Source of the DNA: Escherichia phage SKA64
Direction: 5' to 3' (one strand)
Length of the DNA: 64,000 nucleotides
Sequence record: OM362897.1
The notes beneath the pieces were generated by a model. That model was not told the DNA's origin, made no database searches, and worked only from the letters and a program-made list of their open reading frames with translations. The position numbers and the translations under genes are program-made. The stretch's first letter is position 1. Each line of letters opens with the position of its first letter. Positions 1 through 45,631 of this stretch are shown piece after piece.

Positions 1-23
1 GAAGCCATTTATAAGGAGGATTG

Positions 24-524
24 ATGGGTGTAGCAACAATAGCTATCGGAAGAAGCGGTATAGATGAGTGCTATCAAACGGGACTCGTAAAACCTAACGA
101 ATTTCGTCAAATTTGTGTAAACCATATTGAAAAAGAGATTGCTCTTACTTTAGAGAATATGACCCTCCGAGATAAGCTGGAAATGTTTAAATGTTGGTGT
201 CTAGGAGAAGATTGGCTTTTAAACCATTTTCAAGAACTTTCTGATAGTAAAGAAAGCTTGTTTGATTGTATAATAGGAATAGCTGGCTCCGATCCTAGCC
301 TTCTGCACATAACAGAAGAAGAGGCGAAGTTACTGTTCTTAAGTAATTTGTTTAATAAGAAAGCACTGCTTGTTCGTGATTGCAGTGATCTTCTTAATAA
401 CCCGCTCGCAACGTCTGATCAAATTTTTGTTGACAAAGAGACACTACGTGCGATAGAATACATCTGCAAATATGTGAATGGCGGGAAAGCGGTTCTTAAA
501 ACATTAACAGAGGAGGAAGAATAG
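24..524 (+). CDS. hypothetical protein
   Basis: ORF track 21..524; ATG at 24 after AGGAGG at 14-19; first gene of packed + block. Confidence 0.6.
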   Translation: MGVATIAIGRSGIDECYQTGLVKPNEFRQICVNHIEKEIALTLENMTLRDKLEMFKCWCLGEDWLLNHFQELSDSKESLFDCIIGIAGSDPSLLHITEEEAKLLFLSNLFNKKALLVRDCSDLLNNPLATSDQIFVDKETLRAIEYICKYVNGGKAVLKTLTEEEE

Positions 525-1216
525 TGACGACAATTATTGCAACCAAAAATAAGATTTTGAGTGACGGTAAGGTAACTTTTGGTGGACGTGTAGATTCTAT
601 TAATTTCAAAAAGGTCCGAAAAATTGGAGATTACCTTGTAGGTGGTGCTGGTCGTCTGACCTCCGTGCTTTCTTTCTTTCAATGGTTTGAACAAAATCTA
701 CAGTGCGAAGCAGCACGTGATGCTGTCCCTGGTTTGATGATTCACTCTGATCCAGACAAAGAAGATGAAGAGTTTATTGCACTTGTTGTTCATCCAGACG
801 GACGTATTTTCCTGCACGAGGGTAACAACCCAACACGTGCATATCCGATTGATGAAGAATATTATGCAGTAGGGAGTGGGTCAGACTTTGCTTTAGCTGC
901 TCTTGATGCAGGGGCAACACCAGAACAGGCTATGGAAGTAGCTAAAAAGCGAGATGCTTTTTCTGGTGGTGAAACATTTATTGAAGAACAAGACGAGATT
1001 ATTGAATTAACAGACGATGATTTAGAAAACTTCTCCAAAGAAGAATTGATCAATCTTTTGAAATTCGGTAATCCCTACGGTGAAGAAGAACCTCGTAACG
1101 TGGCAGGTAACGAGGCGGATACTGAAGAAAAATCTGTTGCAGAAAACAACTTGACTTCTAAATCTGAAAATATTAATCTCGTAAATGTGGCGGATTTCGA
1201 AGGAACCGCTATTTAA
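524..1216 (+). CDS. HslV / proteasome beta-subunit-like Ntn-hydrolase peptidase with acidic C-terminal extension
   Basis: GTG start overlapping upstream stop; N-terminus M-TTIIAT (Thr1 nucleophile position), KKVRK, GGAG, AVGSGSDFALAALDAG resemble HslV TTIV / KKVRR / GFAGG / AIGSGG blocks; about 70 aa Asp/Glu-rich tail. Confidence 0.65.
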   Translation: MTTIIATKNKILSDGKVTFGGRVDSINFKKVRKIGDYLVGGAGRLTSVLSFFQWFEQNLQCEAARDAVPGLMIHSDPDKEDEEFIALVVHPDGRIFLHEGNNPTRAYPIDEEYYAVGSGSDFALAALDAGATPEQAMEVAKKRDAFSGGETFIEEQDEIIELTDDDLENFSKEELINLLKFGNPYGEEEPRNVAGNEADTEEKSVAENNLTSKSENINLVNVADFEGTAI

Positions 1217-1261
1217 CAAACTGCCCCTTCGGGGGCATTTCTTAAACATAGGAGATTAATA

Positions 1262-2686: not shown

Positions 2687-2881
2687 ATGCAGAGCGGAGA
2701 AGAACTTTTAGAGAAACAATTCTCAACGCGTCAACAAGCTTTAAGTTATATGGTTTTTCTAAGCAATCTTGATGTGAATGAGATACTTTTACGGCGCGAA
2801 GGTAATTTCTGGAGCGTTAAATATCATGCAACAAGGTCTGTAATCTACCTGGAAGAGGCGGAATTCTCTTTGGTAGAATGA
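2687..2881 (+). CDS. hypothetical protein
   Basis: ORF track; AAGGAGGG RBS. Confidence 0.5.
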   Translation: MQSGEELLEKQFSTRQQALSYMVFLSNLDVNEILLRREGNFWSVKYHATRSVIYLEEAEFSLVE

Positions 2882-2895
2882 TCCGAGGAGTAGTT

Positions 2896-3468
2896 ATGCG
2901 TTCAACTTTCACTGGCAAAATAAATGCTGGTTTGATTTTTACAGCAGTAAGCATTCTTAGCAAAAAGTTTAAAGTTGTTAACTTACCTGTGTGTGTCGAT
3001 TTCGATCATGTTTTTGATCCTTCGAACCCCACTCGTTGCATAGTAAGGAGTAATGTTGAAAACCCAACAGAAAATCTTTTTTATGTAACAAAACCATCTC
3101 AAAGCATACTTAACCAGGTTGAGGCGAAATTGATACCTAACGGTAAATATTACTCCTTTTTACCTTGTAAGTCGGTTGAAGTAGAGAATAGCAATACTTT
3201 CGCTAATAACTTGTCTGTATTCGTTTTCTTTGTTTCACAGGAAGACGAAACAGATGAAATGGTAGCAACAGTGAGATCACTTTATGACTCTTTAGGGGTT
3301 GTTTATAGTCAACAAGTGTGCGAAAATAATAAAGCCTGTGTAGATTTCATTATCAACGGTATTTGTGTTTGTAGAGTAGAATCTTTTTGGCTGCACGATA
3401 CATATGTGACTGTAGCAGAGGTTATATCTGAACCAAGATTTAGTCATGCGGTTTCGTTAATAATTTGA
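2896..3468 (+). CDS. hypothetical protein
   Basis: ORF track 2878..3468; ATG at 2896 after GAGGAG chosen. Confidence 0.55.
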   Translation: MRSTFTGKINAGLIFTAVSILSKKFKVVNLPVCVDFDHVFDPSNPTRCIVRSNVENPTENLFYVTKPSQSILNQVEAKLIPNGKYYSFLPCKSVEVENSNTFANNLSVFVFFVSQEDETDEMVATVRSLYDSLGVVYSQQVCENNKACVDFIINGICVCRVESFWLHDTYVTVAEVISEPRFSHAVSLII

Positions 3469-18097: not shown

Positions 18098-18775
18098 CTA
18101 TTTAATGTTCAGTCTGGCACACAAACGAGAAACAGTTTTAGCATCCCATTTACCACCACGTGCTGTTGCTATTTTCTTACTATTGAATTTTTCAGCAATA
18201 GTTTTGTAAGGTGTATTTAAATCTCTAAGGATCTCCAAGCGTTCACGGAATGTCTCTGCAAAAGCGTCTGCTTTAACAGAGTTGTATTCCATTTTTCCTT
18301 TTCTACGTGCAGCGGCAGTTTTAGGATTAGCACTGCCTAATAAAACACCTTTGCTTTTTGCTACAGCAAGACCCTTTTTAATACGATCAGCAATACCTCT
18401 AACTTCTTGTTCAGCCAGAACAGACAGAAGCTGTATAACCATTTTATCTGCGTCTGGCATAATGGCTATCTTAACATCGATCATTTCTAGAAGAGTTGCT
18501 ACGGAGGCGTTATTACGACCCAAGCGGTCAACTTTAGCTACCAATAAAGTTGCTCCGGTAGCTTTACACATTTCAACCGCTTTAACCAGTTCCTTACGTT
18601 GCTTCCAATCGCCCTTACCCGAATAGTATTCAGAAAATTGACCAATAACTTCCGCATCAGGCACAGAGTCTAAGAAGTAACGGATATCATTCTCTTGGCT
18701 CTCCATACCATATTGTGCCTCACCTTTTTTCTGTTTAGAAAGACGACTGTAAACAACAAACTTTTTCATAACCAC
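18098..18775 (-). CDS. small serine recombinase (resolvase/invertase family)
   Basis: YSRLS catalytic-Ser context, LLVAKVDRLGRN, E-x-E...I-x-x-RIKKGL blocks; 225 aa, no large-integrase extension. Confidence 0.7.
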   Translation of the reverse strand: MVMKKFVVYSRLSKQKKGEAQYGMESQENDIRYFLDSVPDAEVIGQFSEYYSGKGDWKQRKELVKAVEMCKATGATLLVAKVDRLGRNNASVATLLEMIDVKIAIMPDADKMVIQLLSVLAEQEVRGIADRIKKGLAVAKSKGVLLGSANPKTAAARRKGKMEYNSVKADAFAETFRERLEILRDLNTPYKTIAEKFNSKKIATARGGKWDAKTVSRLCARLNIK

Positions 18776-18839
18776 TCCTAAACCATTGCTGTATTCTCAC
18801 TTTACAAAACGAATAAACACTTGTCAAGGTATTTATTAT

Positions 18840-19052
18840 TTACAGCCATTCTACTCTTAAGCAGTATTCCTCGACATGTTGTTTACGCTTGTTTTTGTCT
18901 ATGTAAGTGTATTCAACAAATGTCCCAAGATAGTCCTTGTCTACAGTGTGTGGGCTATTGATTGGACATTTAGTACGACAAACCCGTTGCCACTGACGAA
19001 GAATTACGGCTTTGTTTTTAGGATCAAATGGATGAGGGTAATGTACCTTCAT
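18840..19052 (-). CDS. hypothetical protein
   Basis: ORF track. Confidence 0.45.
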   Translation of the reverse strand: MKVHYPHPFDPKNKAVILRQWQRVCRTKCPINSPHTVDKDYLGTFVEYTYIDKNKRKQHVEEYCLRVEWL

Positions 19053-19376
19053 TCACGCCCCCTGTTTTAGTCGAAAAATATTTTGAATAACTAGAGATGT
19101 ATAGTTATCACCTAGTCCCATAAGTTCTACTTCCAAGTTTCTAATATCTTCCACCGTAGGAGGATATGTTGGTAAAAATGCTTGAGCATTGCCAGATCCA
19201 ACCTCATTGCTGTAAGCAGTTGTAAAATTGTAAGATACAAAACATGAAACACCTTTTTGTCGGTACCCGATTAATCGACGAATACACCAGATAAGAGCTA
19301 AACCTATGAGAACACCTCCTAAACCAGCTAACAAGAAGGATAAGTTCATAATAGCTTCGTTAACAACTGCTTGCAT
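19053..19376 (-). CDS. membrane-anchored protein
   Basis: ORF track; hydrophobic LSFLLAGLGGVLIGLALIW segment. Confidence 0.5.
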   Translation of the reverse strand: MQAVVNEAIMNLSFLLAGLGGVLIGLALIWCIRRLIGYRQKGVSCFVSYNFTTAYSNEVGSGNAQAFLPTYPPTVEDIRNLEVELMGLGDNYTSLVIQNIFRLKQGA

Positions 19377-19386
19377 TCTTTTCTCC

Positions 19387-19740
19387 TTAGTTATGTAAAC
19401 CCAAATGCGCTACAACTTCCCTACGATAAGATAACTGCATAGCGATTTTATAGCCAGGATGAAAACCATTTACATCAATGTCATCAAACCAAACCTCAAA
19501 CGAACCGTGCTTAAGGGTCATTAAGTTGATATACCATTCGATAGTATAATGATCGTTAGCAATACCTTCGATGTAAAACTCTCGGCAACAATGAGATAAA
19601 TCTTCACTTGTTTCACGTTTCCAGTCTTTGATAGCACCCTTCTCTTTAGCTTTATTCAGAATGTGGATCAGGTCTTCAACTTGCATATTCTCTCCTTTAG
19701 TTCCAACTAATAATGATGTGTTTGATAATCCCAAAAACAC
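19387..19740 (-). CDS. hypothetical protein
   Basis: ORF track. Confidence 0.5.
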   Translation of the reverse strand: MFLGLSNTSLLVGTKGENMQVEDLIHILNKAKEKGAIKDWKRETSEDLSHCCREFYIEGIANDHYTIEWYINLMTLKHGSFEVWFDDIDVNGFHPGYKIAMQLSYRREVVAHLGLHN

Positions 19741-20251
19741 TGTGCTCTGCGGTTGCCAATGTTACATCCAAACCTTTTGCACGTAGCATTGTAGCTACAA
19801 CATTTGCCCCTCTTTTCTGCTCACTTATCTGTTCATAAGAAGAAGGGTTATTGCACAAACCAAAACTGGAAGGTTCAAAGTATTTTTCAAACTTCCCTTG
19901 TTCCGCACAATCTTCAATCTCTAATAGAACGGCGTCTACCATTTCAGTAAAATGGGAATTTGCTTGCAGTGCTTTATTACGCAGTTTATCACGTAAACTT
20001 CCCGTAGATTCTTCCTGCTCTTCTGTCTGTCCATCTTCACAGAAAGGATGAAGTTCAGCCCAGTCCCAAGCATCTCCTTCTAAAGCAAATGGAGTGTTGT
20101 AATTGAAGAAAGTGCAGCGCGGATATTCCCCGTTGAAAGAATCTTTCAGCAGAATATATTTCTTACCGTTTGCATGGAAGAGTTCTCCTTTGATAACCTT
20201 ACCTACAAGGATATCACTGTTAGTGGAACGGGTGCAAATAAATTTTTTCAT
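19697..20251 (-). CDS. hypothetical protein
   Basis: ORF track; GAGGAGAA RBS. Confidence 0.55.
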   Translation of the reverse strand: MKKFICTRSTNSDILVGKVIKGELFHANGKKYILLKDSFNGEYPRCTFFNYNTPFALEGDAWDWAELHPFCEDGQTEEQEESTGSLRDKLRNKALQANSHFTEMVDAVLLEIEDCAEQGKFEKYFEPSSFGLCNNPSSYEQISEQKRGANVVATMLRAKGLDVTLATAEHSVFGIIKHIIISWN

Positions 20252-20313
20252 GATTTTCTCCTCTTTGTTTCGATGAGATGATTATGACAAAGACAGATCC
20301 TTCTGTCAACTAT

Positions 20314-20535
20314 TTATTTCCATTCCCCTTGGTGTTCTTTGATCTCATAAGAGTAGTATTCGAACATGCTCATACAAACCACACCAGACATTTCTAAACA
20401 AAGAGGTTTACTATTATAAAAGGCACTTATCATTCTTCCAGCTTTATCTGCTGACTCTTTAGTATCACATCCGCAAACTGTTCTCACCCAAGGATTAGGG
20501 CCATCATACTTAAGACGCACAATCCACATGATCAT
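20314..20535 (-). CDS. hypothetical protein
   Basis: ORF track. Confidence 0.45.
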   Translation of the reverse strand: MIMWIVRLKYDGPNPWVRTVCGCDTKESADKAGRMISAFYNSKPLCLEMSGVVCMSMFEYYSYEIKEHQGEWK

Positions 20536-20759
20536 TCTTCCATCTCAAACCATTCAGGGAACACTTTGCGGAAGACCCGCGTGTTTTCTAAGAGAAATTC
20601 CAACTCTTTTTCCAAATCTGCGTTCCAACCGTTTATTTTAACACGGATTGCCAATGCACTTGCACGGCGACTCAATTCTTGACAGATTGGATCACGCAGA
20701 ACTATTGAGTCATAAAACTGACAAACAGCCTCAAGTTCATACCAGTTATAATCTGACAT
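20532..20759 (-). CDS. hypothetical protein
   Basis: ORF track; ATGA overlap. Confidence 0.45.
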   Translation of the reverse strand: MSDYNWYELEAVCQFYDSIVLRDPICQELSRRASALAIRVKINGWNADLEKELEFLLENTRVFRKVFPEWFEMEE

Positions 20760-42340: not shown

Positions 42341-42883
42341 TCACAAATATCGTCTTTGCGGTATTTTGTCTGGGAAAAGTATTTCGATCAGTTTGTTATG
42401 ATATTTACCTAAAAGATTTTGCCCTTTCCAGTTGACCGGATTTAGCACCCCTGGTTCATACATTCCCATTCCAATACCGTAAACCTTATCGTAAGGACTT
42501 GCTTCAACAAACGTTTTGTATTGGTAAAGGTGTAAGTCTGCATACAAATCTGGATTCTGTACATATTTCAAGCATAAACCTCGCATAACAATACGCTCAC
42601 GGTTCTCTTCCCATACATTGTTATCAAAATCCGACACTGCCCTACCCATACGTTTGTAATAAGCCTGGATCTTCTCATCTTTCCGTATCAAACTATGAGT
42701 CAGAATAGCCTGTGCAGTGTTGTGATCATTAAAAAGCAAAGCTTTACGCCACATCATGTATTGTTCGACACAATTAAATGTCTGATTGTAACCTGGTTCG
42801 GTTTCTGTAAAGGGTGCAATATACCAATTACTAAAAACATCTTTATGTGAAAAGAAGAATACATAATCATCAGTTATTCGCAT
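42341..42883 (-). CDS. NADAR (YbiA-like) domain protein
   Basis: FFFSHKDVFSNWYIAPF, VEQYMMWRKAL, LCLKYVQNPDLYADLHLY, FVEASPYDKVYGIGMG match YbiA/NADAR blocks. Confidence 0.8.
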   Translation of the reverse strand: MRITDDYVFFFSHKDVFSNWYIAPFTETEPGYNQTFNCVEQYMMWRKALLFNDHNTAQAILTHSLIRKDEKIQAYYKRMGRAVSDFDNNVWEENRERIVMRGLCLKYVQNPDLYADLHLYQYKTFVEASPYDKVYGIGMGMYEPGVLNPVNWKGQNLLGKYHNKLIEILFPDKIPQRRYL

Positions 42884-43094: not shown

Positions 43095-43437
43095 AAACTG
43101 CGTCTGCGTCGATGAGTTTGTGTTTGTTGTTCCGCATGTAGTCTAAGATAAGTAGACGTTTATTGTATCTGGAGAGATTATGACCCTCTTTTCCGCCATA
43201 GTCAAAATATTTTGCAAGATCTTTGCACTCAAACAAAATTAGTTCGGGAGTTTCTTCACACTGGTCTGTCTGGTACACTTGACGAATGATCATGTATACA
43301 TCATCGTCTTCCGCTAAATGCTCTACTGGTCCACATCCAGCAGGAACAAATTCATAGTCCCATCTGATCAGATGTTTCTCTACTGCTTCAAAGAAGTCCA
43401 TTCTTTCGTTGCGCATAATTTGAACGTCAACTAACAT
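43072..43437 (-). CDS. hypothetical protein
   Basis: ORF track. Confidence 0.5.
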   Translation of the reverse strand: MLVDVQIMRNERMDFFEAVEKHLIRWDYEFVPAGCGPVEHLAEDDDVYMIIRQVYQTDQCEETPELILFECKDLAKYFDYGGKEGHNLSRYNKRLLILDYMRNNKHKLIDADAVYGYWWMD

Positions 43438-44411
43438 GTTTCCTCCTGTAATATTCCACCATAAAGTTTATAAATGTTTTGTATTGATGCCATGCAAGAT
43501 AACTCTACTGTTTCTGTGTAGCCATCTGGCATAGCATATTTGCTCACTGCTTCCGTATCAAGAATACGCTTACAACGACTCTCTGCATCTTTGCACTGCT
43601 TAACAGTAGGGAAGTGCCACACTTGGTGTTGTTTCATAGTTAACACATTATGGCTATTTTGTTCTTTAATACGCCTATCGCTATCTTTAGTAATGCCAAA
43701 TTTCAAGGCACAGAGAACACCTTGTTCATCATAGACATAGTTAATGTAACATTGCTGTTGATTTTTGTTAGCACAATGCGGACAACCTTGACCCAGGTTT
43801 AATAAGCTATTAGCACTCCCTATATGCTCCCCGTGATCCTTACACCCATATTTAAACTTCCCTATTGATGAGGGTTTACTGATCCACTCTATCCAGATAT
43901 ATCCTTTACTTTCTAAACCTTTTCTCACTTTGTAGGTGATTTGTTCGTCTGTATAATGATAATTTTTAGAACAACGGCAAGGGAGACTCCCTCTTTTAAG
44001 GTTATTCCCTTGTGCATAAAACCTGCCATCACAGACGTGAGCTTGCACATATTCATCATGGGAACATTTAGGACATTCAACCATCCAGATAATACTCTTC
44101 CCTTTACGTTTGCCTGTATTGGTGAAGATAGTTCCAGGCTTAAACTTCCCTGTACTTATGAAATTTTGTATGTGCTGATTGTCTGGAATAGCTTTTGCTT
44201 TACTTATTTTATCATACACACAGGTAGGGCAACCAGTACCCCGTTTAAAGTTATAAAAACAGCATGTATTCCATTCATGACCATGACTACAACGTAGGAT
44301 CATCTTCGTATGCGCACCTTTAAACGGCTCTACGATACCTATAATGGTAATCCCCTTAGTTTCCGCTATTGGTTTACATTCTTCCATGTACTGTTCTAAC
44401 GTCTTTGCCAT
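43431..44411 (-). CDS. multi-zinc-ribbon protein
   Basis: three C-x-H/C...C-x2-C modules (CSHGHEW...CPTC; CPKCSHDEY; CKDHGEH...CPHCANKN). Confidence 0.55.
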   Translation of the reverse strand: MAKTLEQYMEECKPIAETKGITIIGIVEPFKGAHTKMILRCSHGHEWNTCCFYNFKRGTGCPTCVYDKISKAKAIPDNQHIQNFISTGKFKPGTIFTNTGKRKGKSIIWMVECPKCSHDEYVQAHVCDGRFYAQGNNLKRGSLPCRCSKNYHYTDEQITYKVRKGLESKGYIWIEWISKPSSIGKFKYGCKDHGEHIGSANSLLNLGQGCPHCANKNQQQCYINYVYDEQGVLCALKFGITKDSDRRIKEQNSHNVLTMKQHQVWHFPTVKQCKDAESRCKRILDTEAVSKYAMPDGYTETVELSCMASIQNIYKLYGGILQEETC

Positions 44412-44491: not shown

Positions 44492-45631
44492 TTAGAACAC
44501 GCTACCTAATGTGGTGGAACGTTGTGTTACAGGCTCCAGCACCACTCGCAGAGTGTTTCCTGGTGTAGTGCTCATCACCAGAATCTTACCACCTTCAATC
44601 AGATCACAAGTTAGACCATCAGCAGTTGCACATAGATCAATATGTGGATCACCATCTTCATCCAGGATAACATAACTGTTGGTTTCCATTGCTTCCACTT
44701 CATCATCTTTCAAACTTTGTAGATAGATGTTCAGGGAACAAGCACCCGACAAAAACTTAGTAGGGGTGAAGTCGTGCCAGTTATTGATCCAATTCACCTT
44801 CAAGGTTTTGCCATTAGCTACGATAGAAGCCACATTCCATTTAGCATCGTTCCCTAAAGAAATACCCATCATTTCAAGACATTCTTTAAAAGTCATTTTT
44901 GGATAGAAATTCAATTCTTCTACAATGCCTTGAATAACATCGAAAGACAACTCTGTGCTAACATCCCATAAACGTTGGAAGTTATCTACGTGCTTTTTAT
45001 TTACCAAGTTCTTATCCAAGTAATCTAACATAGTTTCACTAGACAGTTTATCGTAATTGAAACTGTAGTAGATACGACTAGGACGGTTTACAAAATATTC
45101 CGAGATATAGCCACTATTTTTAGTGAGGATGTAAAGTTTATTTCCACTTCCTGTTCCATCCAACAAGGTCAACAGTGCTTCCTGATCTTCTTTCTTAGCG
45201 TACACTTTATCAAACTCGTCAAATAAAACAACAGCACGATCTGTAATTTTACTCATAAATTCTAAGAATCCAGCGTCTGTGTAAGGCTGTGTCACCAAAA
45301 TGGTTGGAATACCTAAACCTTCTGTGGACATTAGGGACATGCTAATCAGTTTAGCTAACATCGTCTTACCACTGCCCTTTGTCCCTGTCAGTAACACCCC
45401 AGTATTTTTACCTTCTTTACTACGACGAGCAAATGTTTTAATAACATGTGCGGCGCGGTCTTTAGTTTCCCCATAAAGAGTGTTCGGAAGAGAGAAACTT
45501 TCGCCACGCACTAAAGAGTAGTTACCGTGCGGATCGCAGTTGACAACCCAAACTCCAGCAGGAAGTTTATTAGCTTCAACACCATATTCCTTATTTACAA
45601 CAGCCACATCTCCAAAAATAGTGTATTTCAT
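44492..45631 (-). CDS. AAA+ family ATPase
   Basis: Walker A GTKGSGKT, Walker B VVLFDEFD. Confidence 0.7.
   Translation of the reverse strand: MKYTIFGDVAVVNKEYGVEANKLPAGVWVVNCDPHGNYSLVRGESFSLPNTLYGETKDRAAHVIKTFARRSKEGKNTGVLLTGTKGSGKTMLAKLISMSLMSTEGLGIPTILVTQPYTDAGFLEFMSKITDRAVVLFDEFDKVYAKKEDQEALLTLLDGTGSGNKLYILTKNSGYISEYFVNRPSRIYYSFNYDKLSSETMLDYLDKNLVNKKHVDNFQRLWDVSTELSFDVIQGIVEELNFYPKMTFKECLEMMGISLGNDAKWNVASIVANGKTLKVNWINNWHDFTPTKFLSGACSLNIYLQSLKDDEVEAMETNSYVILDEDGDPHIDLCATADGLTCDLIEGGKILVMSTTPGNTLRVVLEPVTQRSTTLGSVF

Follow-up and report, generated by a model that had tools for sequence, protein, structure and literature searches.

The features by which the peptidase HslV (ClpQ) engages the unfoldase HslU (ClpY) are described in some detail. 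HslV is a dodecamer of two hexameric rings that HslU and ATP activate. The C-terminal tail of HslU is received in a pocket of HslV formed by Ala79 and Lys80 of helix H2 together with Phe54, Phe57 and Gln114 (PMC6429459), and the pore entrance of HslV carries a basic cluster, Arg86, Arg89 and Lys90, which HslU remodels and whose mutation cripples the enzyme (PMC5777263). BPH, a descendant of HslV that has lost the dependence on HslU, has an acidic pore loop, is made without a propeptide, lacks an identifiable unfoldase and did not bind HslU in pull-downs (PMC5777263). Fuchs, Alva and Lupas have described the phage homologs PPH/RPC, which lack both H2 and a propeptide, retain H1, H3, H4 and the beta-sandwich, and belong to the HslV/BPH group I; PPH are proteins of about 140 residues encoded by tailed phages, while RPC, reported from proteobacterial genomes only, join a PPH-like core to a C-terminal extension of unknown fold, and the C-termini of such homologs point away from the rings as possible interaction sites (PMC8665760). 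Here, a gene of this general kind is analyzed near the left end of a stretch of 64,000 nucleotides from Escherichia phage SKA64 (sequence record OM362897.1), the whole of which is called the window. From sequence comparison and a structural model, its product is probably (at a likelihood of roughly 0.6) an accessory peptidase of the PPH/RPC type, proteasome-like, catalytically competent and independent of HslU.

The open reading frame (ORF) encodes 230 amino acids (aa) from a GTG codon, the product beginning MTTIIATKNK. The start overlaps by one nucleotide the TAG stop of the upstream gene (TAGTG), and ribosome-binding sites of the AGGAGG type are retained in relatives. Over its first 6 kb, the window shares 99.6-99.7% identity with Escherichia phage phAPEC8 and related phages (Phapecoctavirus, Stephanstirmvirinae), and it is of the type of a phAPEC8-like Escherichia myovirus. 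The gene itself is 99.6% identical to RefSeq gp175 of phAPEC8, where it is labeled "peptidase HslV family"; other records call it "ATP-dependent protease subunit HslV". The profile phrog_1040 (PHROGs v4), also named "peptidase HslV family", matches over the full length, tail included (expectation value, E, 1.6e-63; residues 1-229 on profile positions 14-247 of 277), but this name is one inferred for a sequence cluster. The gene is already annotated, its family has already been described bioinformatically, and it is no new entity.

Relationship to the proteasome superfamily is evident from several comparisons. The Pfam model PF00227 (Proteasome) is passed marginally, at 25.6 bits against a cut-off of 22.4; the nearest solved protein by phmmer is HslV of T. 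maritima (1m4y, E 4.9e-9); a profile of the family finds HslV in the PDB (E 3.6e-12); and E. coli HslV as query recovers the ORF at E 2.4e-7, at a sequence identity to the host HslV of only about 22-25%. These matches bear out the conserved HslV blocks on which a preliminary description of the sequence had relied. The N-terminal nucleophile (Ntn) hydrolase fold, which that description had proposed to look for by structure prediction, is likewise present: in an AlphaFold model of a single chain, built on an alignment of 29 homologs, the core has a predicted local distance difference test score (pLDDT) above 90, and the best match of the model in Foldseek is again HslV 1m4y (E 8e-11; template modeling, TM, score 0.70 on the target); proteasome beta subunits of archaea and eukaryotes, and BPH, rank next.

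The residues of the HslV active site all have counterparts in the phage protein (Table 1). Across all 29 aligned homologs, the most distant at 27% identity, there is no change at Met1, Thr2, Thr3, Ile4, Asp14, Lys30, Gly43 or Gly117-Ser118-Gly119, so that the placement of Thr directly after the initiator Met (MTTIIATK), pointed out in the preliminary description, holds without exception among them. Thr following Met is a permitted substrate of methionine aminopeptidase; since Thr follows Met here and removal of Met is permitted, no propeptide would be needed for exposure of the nucleophile. The product is an Ntn threonine peptidase of the proteasome/HslV type, with all of the catalytic residues in place.

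This invariance, across a family that diverges below 30% identity, argues for an active enzyme and, at the level of sequence, for selection for catalysis. It also bears on an earlier suggestion that the protein might be a decoy or inhibitor of the host protease. In such a role its catalytic residues would be irrelevant, and it would titrate host HslU or poison host HslV rings. The shared HslV fold and the acidic tail are compatible with this. However, the changes have fallen on the very surfaces by which HslU would recognize a mimic of HslV, and an identity to host HslV of the order given above makes mixed rings implausible; together with the invariant catalytic residues, these points leave a decoy extremely improbable.

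Kinship with HslV at the level of the superfamily does not extend to canonical HslV. The protein fails both NCBIfam equivalog models for HslV, NF003964 (32.2 bits, cut-off 137) and TIGR03692 (31.4 bits, cut-off 157.75); all 79 bacterial HslV-type proteins match E. coli HslV at 1e-48 to 1e-74 and the phage protein at 1e-6 to 1e-11. The identity of the product as an HslV-like peptidase, as first proposed, stands at the superfamily level only, and the phage peptidase is not a canonical HslV.

The departures are concentrated where HslV meets HslU. The modeled helices are H1 (residues 45-67), H3 (120-128) and H4 (133-143); the apical helix H2 is absent from the AlphaFold model, in which residues 68-83 form a coil instead. 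Mapped onto HslV, the pore-loop positions Arg86, Leu88, Arg89 and Lys90 correspond to Lys79, Asp81, Glu82 and Glu83, and the acidic series K-E-D-E-E is kept across the family, with Asp81 near-invariant in the 29-homolog alignment. In the pocket for the HslU C-tail, Phe54 corresponds to Leu49, Gln114 to Arg105 and Ala79/Lys80 to His74/Ser75, the last two lying in the coil; among the pocket residues checked, only Phe57 is kept (Phe52 in the phage protein). The position of HslV Lys28, which we take from the H. influenzae HslUV structure to be a contact for the C-terminal carboxylate of HslU, is occupied by Ser25.

A second suggestion of the preliminary description, that the protein recruits host HslU, has to be judged against these changes. 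On this account the phage peptidase would dock HslU (ClpY) as its unfoldase and so redirect ATP-dependent proteolysis in infection. In its favor are the place of HslV as the nearest solved family, the presence of HslU in E. coli, the conservation of HslV Phe57 and Arg35, and the lack of an HslU of the phage's own. Opposed to it are the missing H2 with its pocket residues Ala79/Lys80, the replacement of Lys28 by Ser, Gln114 by Arg and Phe54 by Leu, and the charge reversal of the basic pore cluster, a reversal that is itself conserved (PMC6429459, PMC5777263). The HslV equivalog thresholds are missed by more than 100 bits, and BPH, a comparable HslV descendant, showed no HslU binding in pull-downs (PMC5777263). 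Nothing in the sequence points towards recruitment of HslU, and we consider it unlikely.

Where the protein does belong can be seen from an exhaustive search over 1.84 billion representatives, which gave 2334 matches at E <= 1e-3 and 123 at E <= 1e-10. The top 60 or so, 180-350 aa in length, are tailed proteins whose alignment extends to residue ~180-210, and the next group consists of solo phage proteins of about 128-160 aa rather than of the HslVs of about 175 aa. Homologs occur in 233 GenBank phage records, with Escherichia, Vibrio, Caulobacter, Aeromonas, Klebsiella, Rhizobium and others as hosts, and BFVD holds 45 viral structure clusters with the same fold. In a scan of bacterial species-representative genomes, made with a narrow homolog alignment, only canonical HslVs and one putative contaminant contig were found. 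That contig, JAPMLR010000072.1 (425 bp, from a Lysobacteraceae assembly), is 100% identical to residues 68-208 and is probably phage contamination.

Comparison with the described systems places the phage peptidase most likely in the HslV/BPH group I, closest to PPH/RPC, a fit judged by the published descriptions of PPH (reference sequence WP_042125023.1) and RPC (WP_140207863). It shares with PPH/RPC a phage-borne, compact group I core without a propeptide and without H2 (the loss of H2 being a prediction of the model), and it has a C-terminal extension (70 aa), the kind of feature by which RPC are defined. It differs in the size of its core, about 157 aa versus about 140 aa, and in keeping a 16-residue acidic loop at a site that is deleted in the short forms. 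The tailed clade to which it belongs was found only in phages, whereas RPC are reported only from Proteobacteria, so that its distribution fits PPH and not that reported for RPC.

With HslV (ClpQ), the best-matching solved family, the protein has in common the Met-Thr-Thr-Ile start, the Ntn fold and the Thr1/Asp17/Lys33/Ser124-Gly125 site. It differs in having no H2, a pore loop that is acidic and not basic, no counterpart of Lys28, a 9-residue deletion after H3, the 70-aa tail and no hslU neighbor. BPH offers the closest functional analogy, in its acidic pore loop and the lack of a conserved partner, but not a membership: BPH keeps H2, has an elongated pore loop and heptameric rings, and has no C-terminal tail. 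BPH (5ovs) is also more distant than HslV by phmmer (E ~1) and by Foldseek (query TM score 0.45 versus 0.53 for HslV).

One relative deserves separate mention. Aeromonas phage 2L372D has two adjoining proteasome-like genes (L005, 2932-3483 and 3501-4385), one encoding a protein of 183 aa that starts MTCIIAL, matches HslV models only weakly and does not match the phAPEC8 protein, and the other a 294-aa member of the tailed clade. A possibility is that the paired products form hetero-oligomers or are two separate Ntn enzymes.

The C-terminal tail is acidic. Residues 155-230 contain 21 Asp/Glu in 76 (27.6%) and 5 Lys/Arg (6.6%), for a net charge of -16, compared with 15.6% Asp/Glu in the core. 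The preliminary description was right about this composition, but the tail is not plain low complexity: about 20 residues at its beginning form a conserved helical motif, with predicted helices at 164-169 and 172-181 (pLDDT ~85) and an amphipathic consensus, L-T-K/R-E-x-L-x-x-M-S/T-K-E-E-L-L-x-x-L-F-G. A profile of the motif matches 50 of 150 family representatives (clusters at 50% identity), and 49 of the 70 among them that have at least 178 aa. Beyond it, residues ~186-230 are predicted to be disordered, the pLDDT of the model falling below 50 at residues 192-214 and 226-230, and the 25 aa that follow the motif average 38% Asp/Glu and 6.5% Lys/Arg across the family. Many homologs continue into another C-terminal module, with the end ...L-G-V-K-Y-A-H-N-I-G-x-E-K-L..., or into a Cys-rich domain; the phAPEC8 protein has neither. 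A Pfam search with this tail and nine homolog tails gave no family match, and an impression of a HeH/SAP/Rho_N-like domain likewise found no Pfam support. A role of the extreme C-terminus as a mimic of the HslU tail or as a degron was discarded, as it is not conserved among close homologs. The recurrence of the motif with an acidic stretch behind it indicates that the architecture is under selection, and the tail is probably an outward-facing docking or recruitment element.

A more elaborate proposal would make the tailed clade self-sufficient, unfoldase-free proteases in which the tail helix docks into the inter-subunit groove as a built-in activator and the acidic, DNA-mimic-like stretch captures basic host proteins; these may be nucleoid or defence proteins, degraded early in infection. 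The tail series D-D-L-E-N-F-S-K-E-E-L... loosely resembles the C-terminus of HslU, E-D-L-S-R-F-I-L. However, the resemblance involves three positions only, the motif is internal and not a free C-terminus, and Lys28, presumably the binder of the HslU carboxylate, is absent, and the proposal as a whole appears quite improbable.

The tail also enters a different proposal, in which the protein is an Ntn enzyme with non-degradative chemistry, for example a sequence-specific transpeptidase or ligase, or an enzyme that processes a single site, and the tail selects the target. Connectase, a proteasome homolog that acts as a ligase (PMC8665760), provides a precedent; it lacks H1/H2 and has inserted helices. 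The inertness of BPH on standard substrates (PMC5777263), the lack of an unfoldase partner and a conserved tail that could serve as a target-recognition element are also in keeping with such chemistry. The phage protein, unlike connectase, has nevertheless kept a compact HslV/BPH-like core, and no candidate substrate gene is conserved nearby; chemistry other than degradation is, in our view, decidedly unlikely.

Independence from HslU leads to the question of whether the phage supplies an unfoldase itself. E. coli HslU finds no homolog by phmmer among all six-frame segments of the window (best E 2.5), nor in a search over the whole phAPEC8 reference genome. The earlier observation that the window has no HslU-like ATPase is correct as regards HslU homologs, but it passed over a classical AAA ATPase, gp014 of phAPEC8 (Table 1). 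In none of 80 viral loci is there an HslU gene or a gp014-type AAA gene less than 10 kb from the peptidase gene; as a positive control, hslU is within 500 nt in 65 of 79 bacterial HslV loci. An unbiased clustering of neighboring ORFs in the 80 viral loci found none kept in more than 6 of 28 locus groups. The upstream gene, gp174, was considered as a partner and set aside, being conserved within the subfamily only.

The AAA ATPase could in principle pair with the peptidase, so that the phage would encode both components of an ATP-dependent protease. Its sequence contains Walker A and Walker B motifs, a second region of homology reading RPSR, and conserved beta-rich domains at the N- and C-terminus. 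In Foldseek its AlphaFold model (pLDDT 83.6) is nearest to Bcs1 and YjoB, with the proteasomal Rpt subunits, FtsH, Mpa and Cdc48 next; moreover, both genes are present in all Stephanstirmvirinae examined, in 106 Escherichia-phage records each. The two genes are, however, about 43 kb apart on opposite strands, and the alignment of gp014 shows no conserved aromatic-hydrophobic-Gly pore loop. Their distributions differ as well: the ATPase family is widespread in jumbo phages and in phages of Gram-positive hosts (Enterococcus, Bacillus, Staphylococcus, Lactococcus), where the peptidase is lacking; Vibrio and Caulobacter, whose phages carry the peptidase, are not among the ten host genera that lead for the ATPase; and gp014 was not found in Aeromonas phage 2L372D, which was scanned in full and has a peptidase of the tailed clade. 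As a dedicated partner gp014, a genuine classical-clade AAA protein, is rejected on this distribution, and given also the 0 of 80 loci, a two-component protease is very doubtful. The "ATPase" of Aeromonas phage 2L372D was likewise dismissed as a candidate; it is of the MoxR type and unrelated to gp014. This MoxR-type ATPase (L170, 25688-26839) is shared with rV5/PVP-SE1-like phages, and no homolog of it was detected in phAPEC8.

The preferred account, that of an HslU-independent accessory peptidase of the PPH/RPC type, can be put as a tentative sequence of steps. Host methionine aminopeptidase would remove Met and expose Thr1, and the equivalents of Asp17, Lys33 and the Ser124-Gly125 loop would complete the active site with no need of a propeptide. 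By analogy with HslV and BPH, the subunits may form stacked rings around the active sites. The ring entrance would be lined by the conserved acidic loop and not by H2 and the basic cluster, with both the surface for HslU docking and the pore altered. The C-terminus is predicted to face off the ring, where the amphipathic two-helix motif and the acidic disordered stretch after it would most plausibly dock or recruit substrates or partners. The gene, situated in the early/middle nucleotide-metabolism block, would form a small transcription unit of its own and serve an accessory, dispensable function. The analysis itself establishes homology, fold, the conserved catalytic residues, the loss of features tied to HslU, the lack of a conserved ATPase partner and the conserved build of the tail; in this scheme we infer the oligomeric state, the proteolytic activity, the role of the tail and the timing of expression.

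Several points weigh against this account. The conserved Phe57 and Arg35 of HslV mean that part of the HslU-facing surface is retained, and the evidence for a lost H2 and for where the tail helices lie comes from one monomer AlphaFold model on a 29-sequence alignment, with a loop pLDDT of 64-78. BPH is inert in standard peptidase assays despite an intact active site (PMC5777263), and a conserved catalytic set is therefore no guarantee of conventional proteolysis; no functional work on HslV-like or PPH proteins of phages turned up in the literature searched. The phage does encode an AAA ATPase of the protein-remodeling type in gp014. A PhoH-like ATPase, finally, lies 1-6 genes upstream of the peptidase in 20 of 20 tailed-clade loci, compared with 0 of 60 loci of the short forms of about 140 aa; at locus L001 it is found at 18707-19465, just upstream of the window. 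This linkage has a competing explanation, as the block of NrdAB, lysozyme, PhoH, peptidase and DprA-like genes is syntenic between phAPEC8 and the Aeromonas phage, and shared ancestry accounts for it at least as well as function does. With the whole block syntenic, and PhoH not being an ATPase of the unfoldase type, PhoH was not retained as a partner.

The gene stands in a long plus-strand block that includes NrdAB, thymidylate synthase, lysozyme and PhoH, followed by a methyltransferase, a NinI-like phosphatase and a DprA-like protein, a block of nucleotide-metabolism and small early/middle genes; the distance of the gene from the head and tail modules makes a part in capsid maturation unlikely. 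A promoter-like site within the upstream gene, recognized as a consensus match only, keeps its position in some diverged relatives and is degenerate in others. Behind the gene, diverged relatives have hairpins with other stem sequences at the same place as the terminator-like hairpin of the window, and the Aeromonas phage has a classic terminator. Together these signals suggest, as far as sequence motifs allow, that host RNA polymerase transcribes the peptidase gene as a self-contained unit. Phage VEcB carries a deletion, corresponding to L001 ~18707-20693, that fuses PhoH residues 1 to ~113 to the peptidase from residue ~63, with loss of Thr1 and of the upstream gene; as Thr1 has been lost in a natural phage, the function of the peptidase is dispensable for propagation.

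Table 1. Features of the peptidase gene and related elements in the window (positions in nucleotides; residues numbered from the initiator Met)
Feature	Position	Strand	Remarks
Coding sequence, proteasome/HslV-like peptidase	524..1216	+	phAPEC8 gp175, YP_007348462.1; phrog_1040 match
Ntn/proteasome-fold core, aa 1-157	524..994	+	AlphaFold, Foldseek, residue mapping
Thr2 codon (Thr1 of mature enzyme), predicted N-terminal nucleophile	527..529	+	maps to E. coli HslV Thr1
Asp14 codon	563-565	+	equivalent to HslV Asp17
Lys30 codon	611-613	+	equivalent to HslV Lys33
Loop aa 68-83 (VPGLMIHSDPDKEDEE), in place of HslV helix H2 and basic pore motif	725..772	+	coil, pLDDT 64-78
Ser118-Gly119 codons	875-880	+	equivalent to HslV Ser124-Gly125
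Conserved tail motif, aa 161-181 (ELTDDDLENFSKEELINLLKF)	1004..1066	+	two short helices right after core
Acidic, predicted-disordered C-terminal stretch, aa 182-230	1067..1213	+	sequence and length variable in homologs
Shine-Dalgarno-like GAGGAGG	510..516	+	7 nt before GTG start
Sigma-70-type promoter-like site, TTGACA-18-TAGAAT (11/12)	430..459	+	inside 3' end of upstream gene, 94 nt before start codon
Terminator-like hairpin TGCCCC-TTCG-GGGGCA (1222-1237), then TTTCTT	1222..1244	+	6 nt past stop codon
Upstream gene gp174, 167 aa, phrog_14834	21..524	+	kept within Stephanstirmvirinae only (17/80 loci, all close relatives)
Classical AAA ATPase, 379 aa (phAPEC8 gp014, phrog_2376)	44492..45631	-	PF00004, 29.9 bits versus cut-off 21.2

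Other genes of the window attracted attention in passing. Near the AAA gene, on the minus strand, are an endonuclease with three CapR-homology repeats and a GIY-YIG/T5orf172-like domain (43431..44411) and a NADAR-domain protein (42341..42883), the NADAR family being linked to ADP-ribose/NAD-related metabolism. A 196-aa ORF at 2878..3468 (+) matches phrog_4806, "histidyl tRNA synthetase", an annotation of which phAPEC8 has a second copy (gp042); for an ORF of fewer than 200 aa the name is doubtful.

For the family at large, the useful outcome is a negative one, namely that such genes are not to be interpreted as encoding an HslV that makes use of the host's HslU. Among large phages, proteasome-like peptidases are widespread, as the 233 records and 45 viral structure clusters attest, and since such phages are under development for therapy and food safety, the roles of their accessory proteases are of practical value. 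If the clade is indeed active, independent of an ATPase and equipped with a recruitment tail of its own, it would offer a compact model for how substrates may be chosen by a self-compartmentalizing protease without an unfoldase, which is the same question that is posed by bacterial BPH and Anbu.

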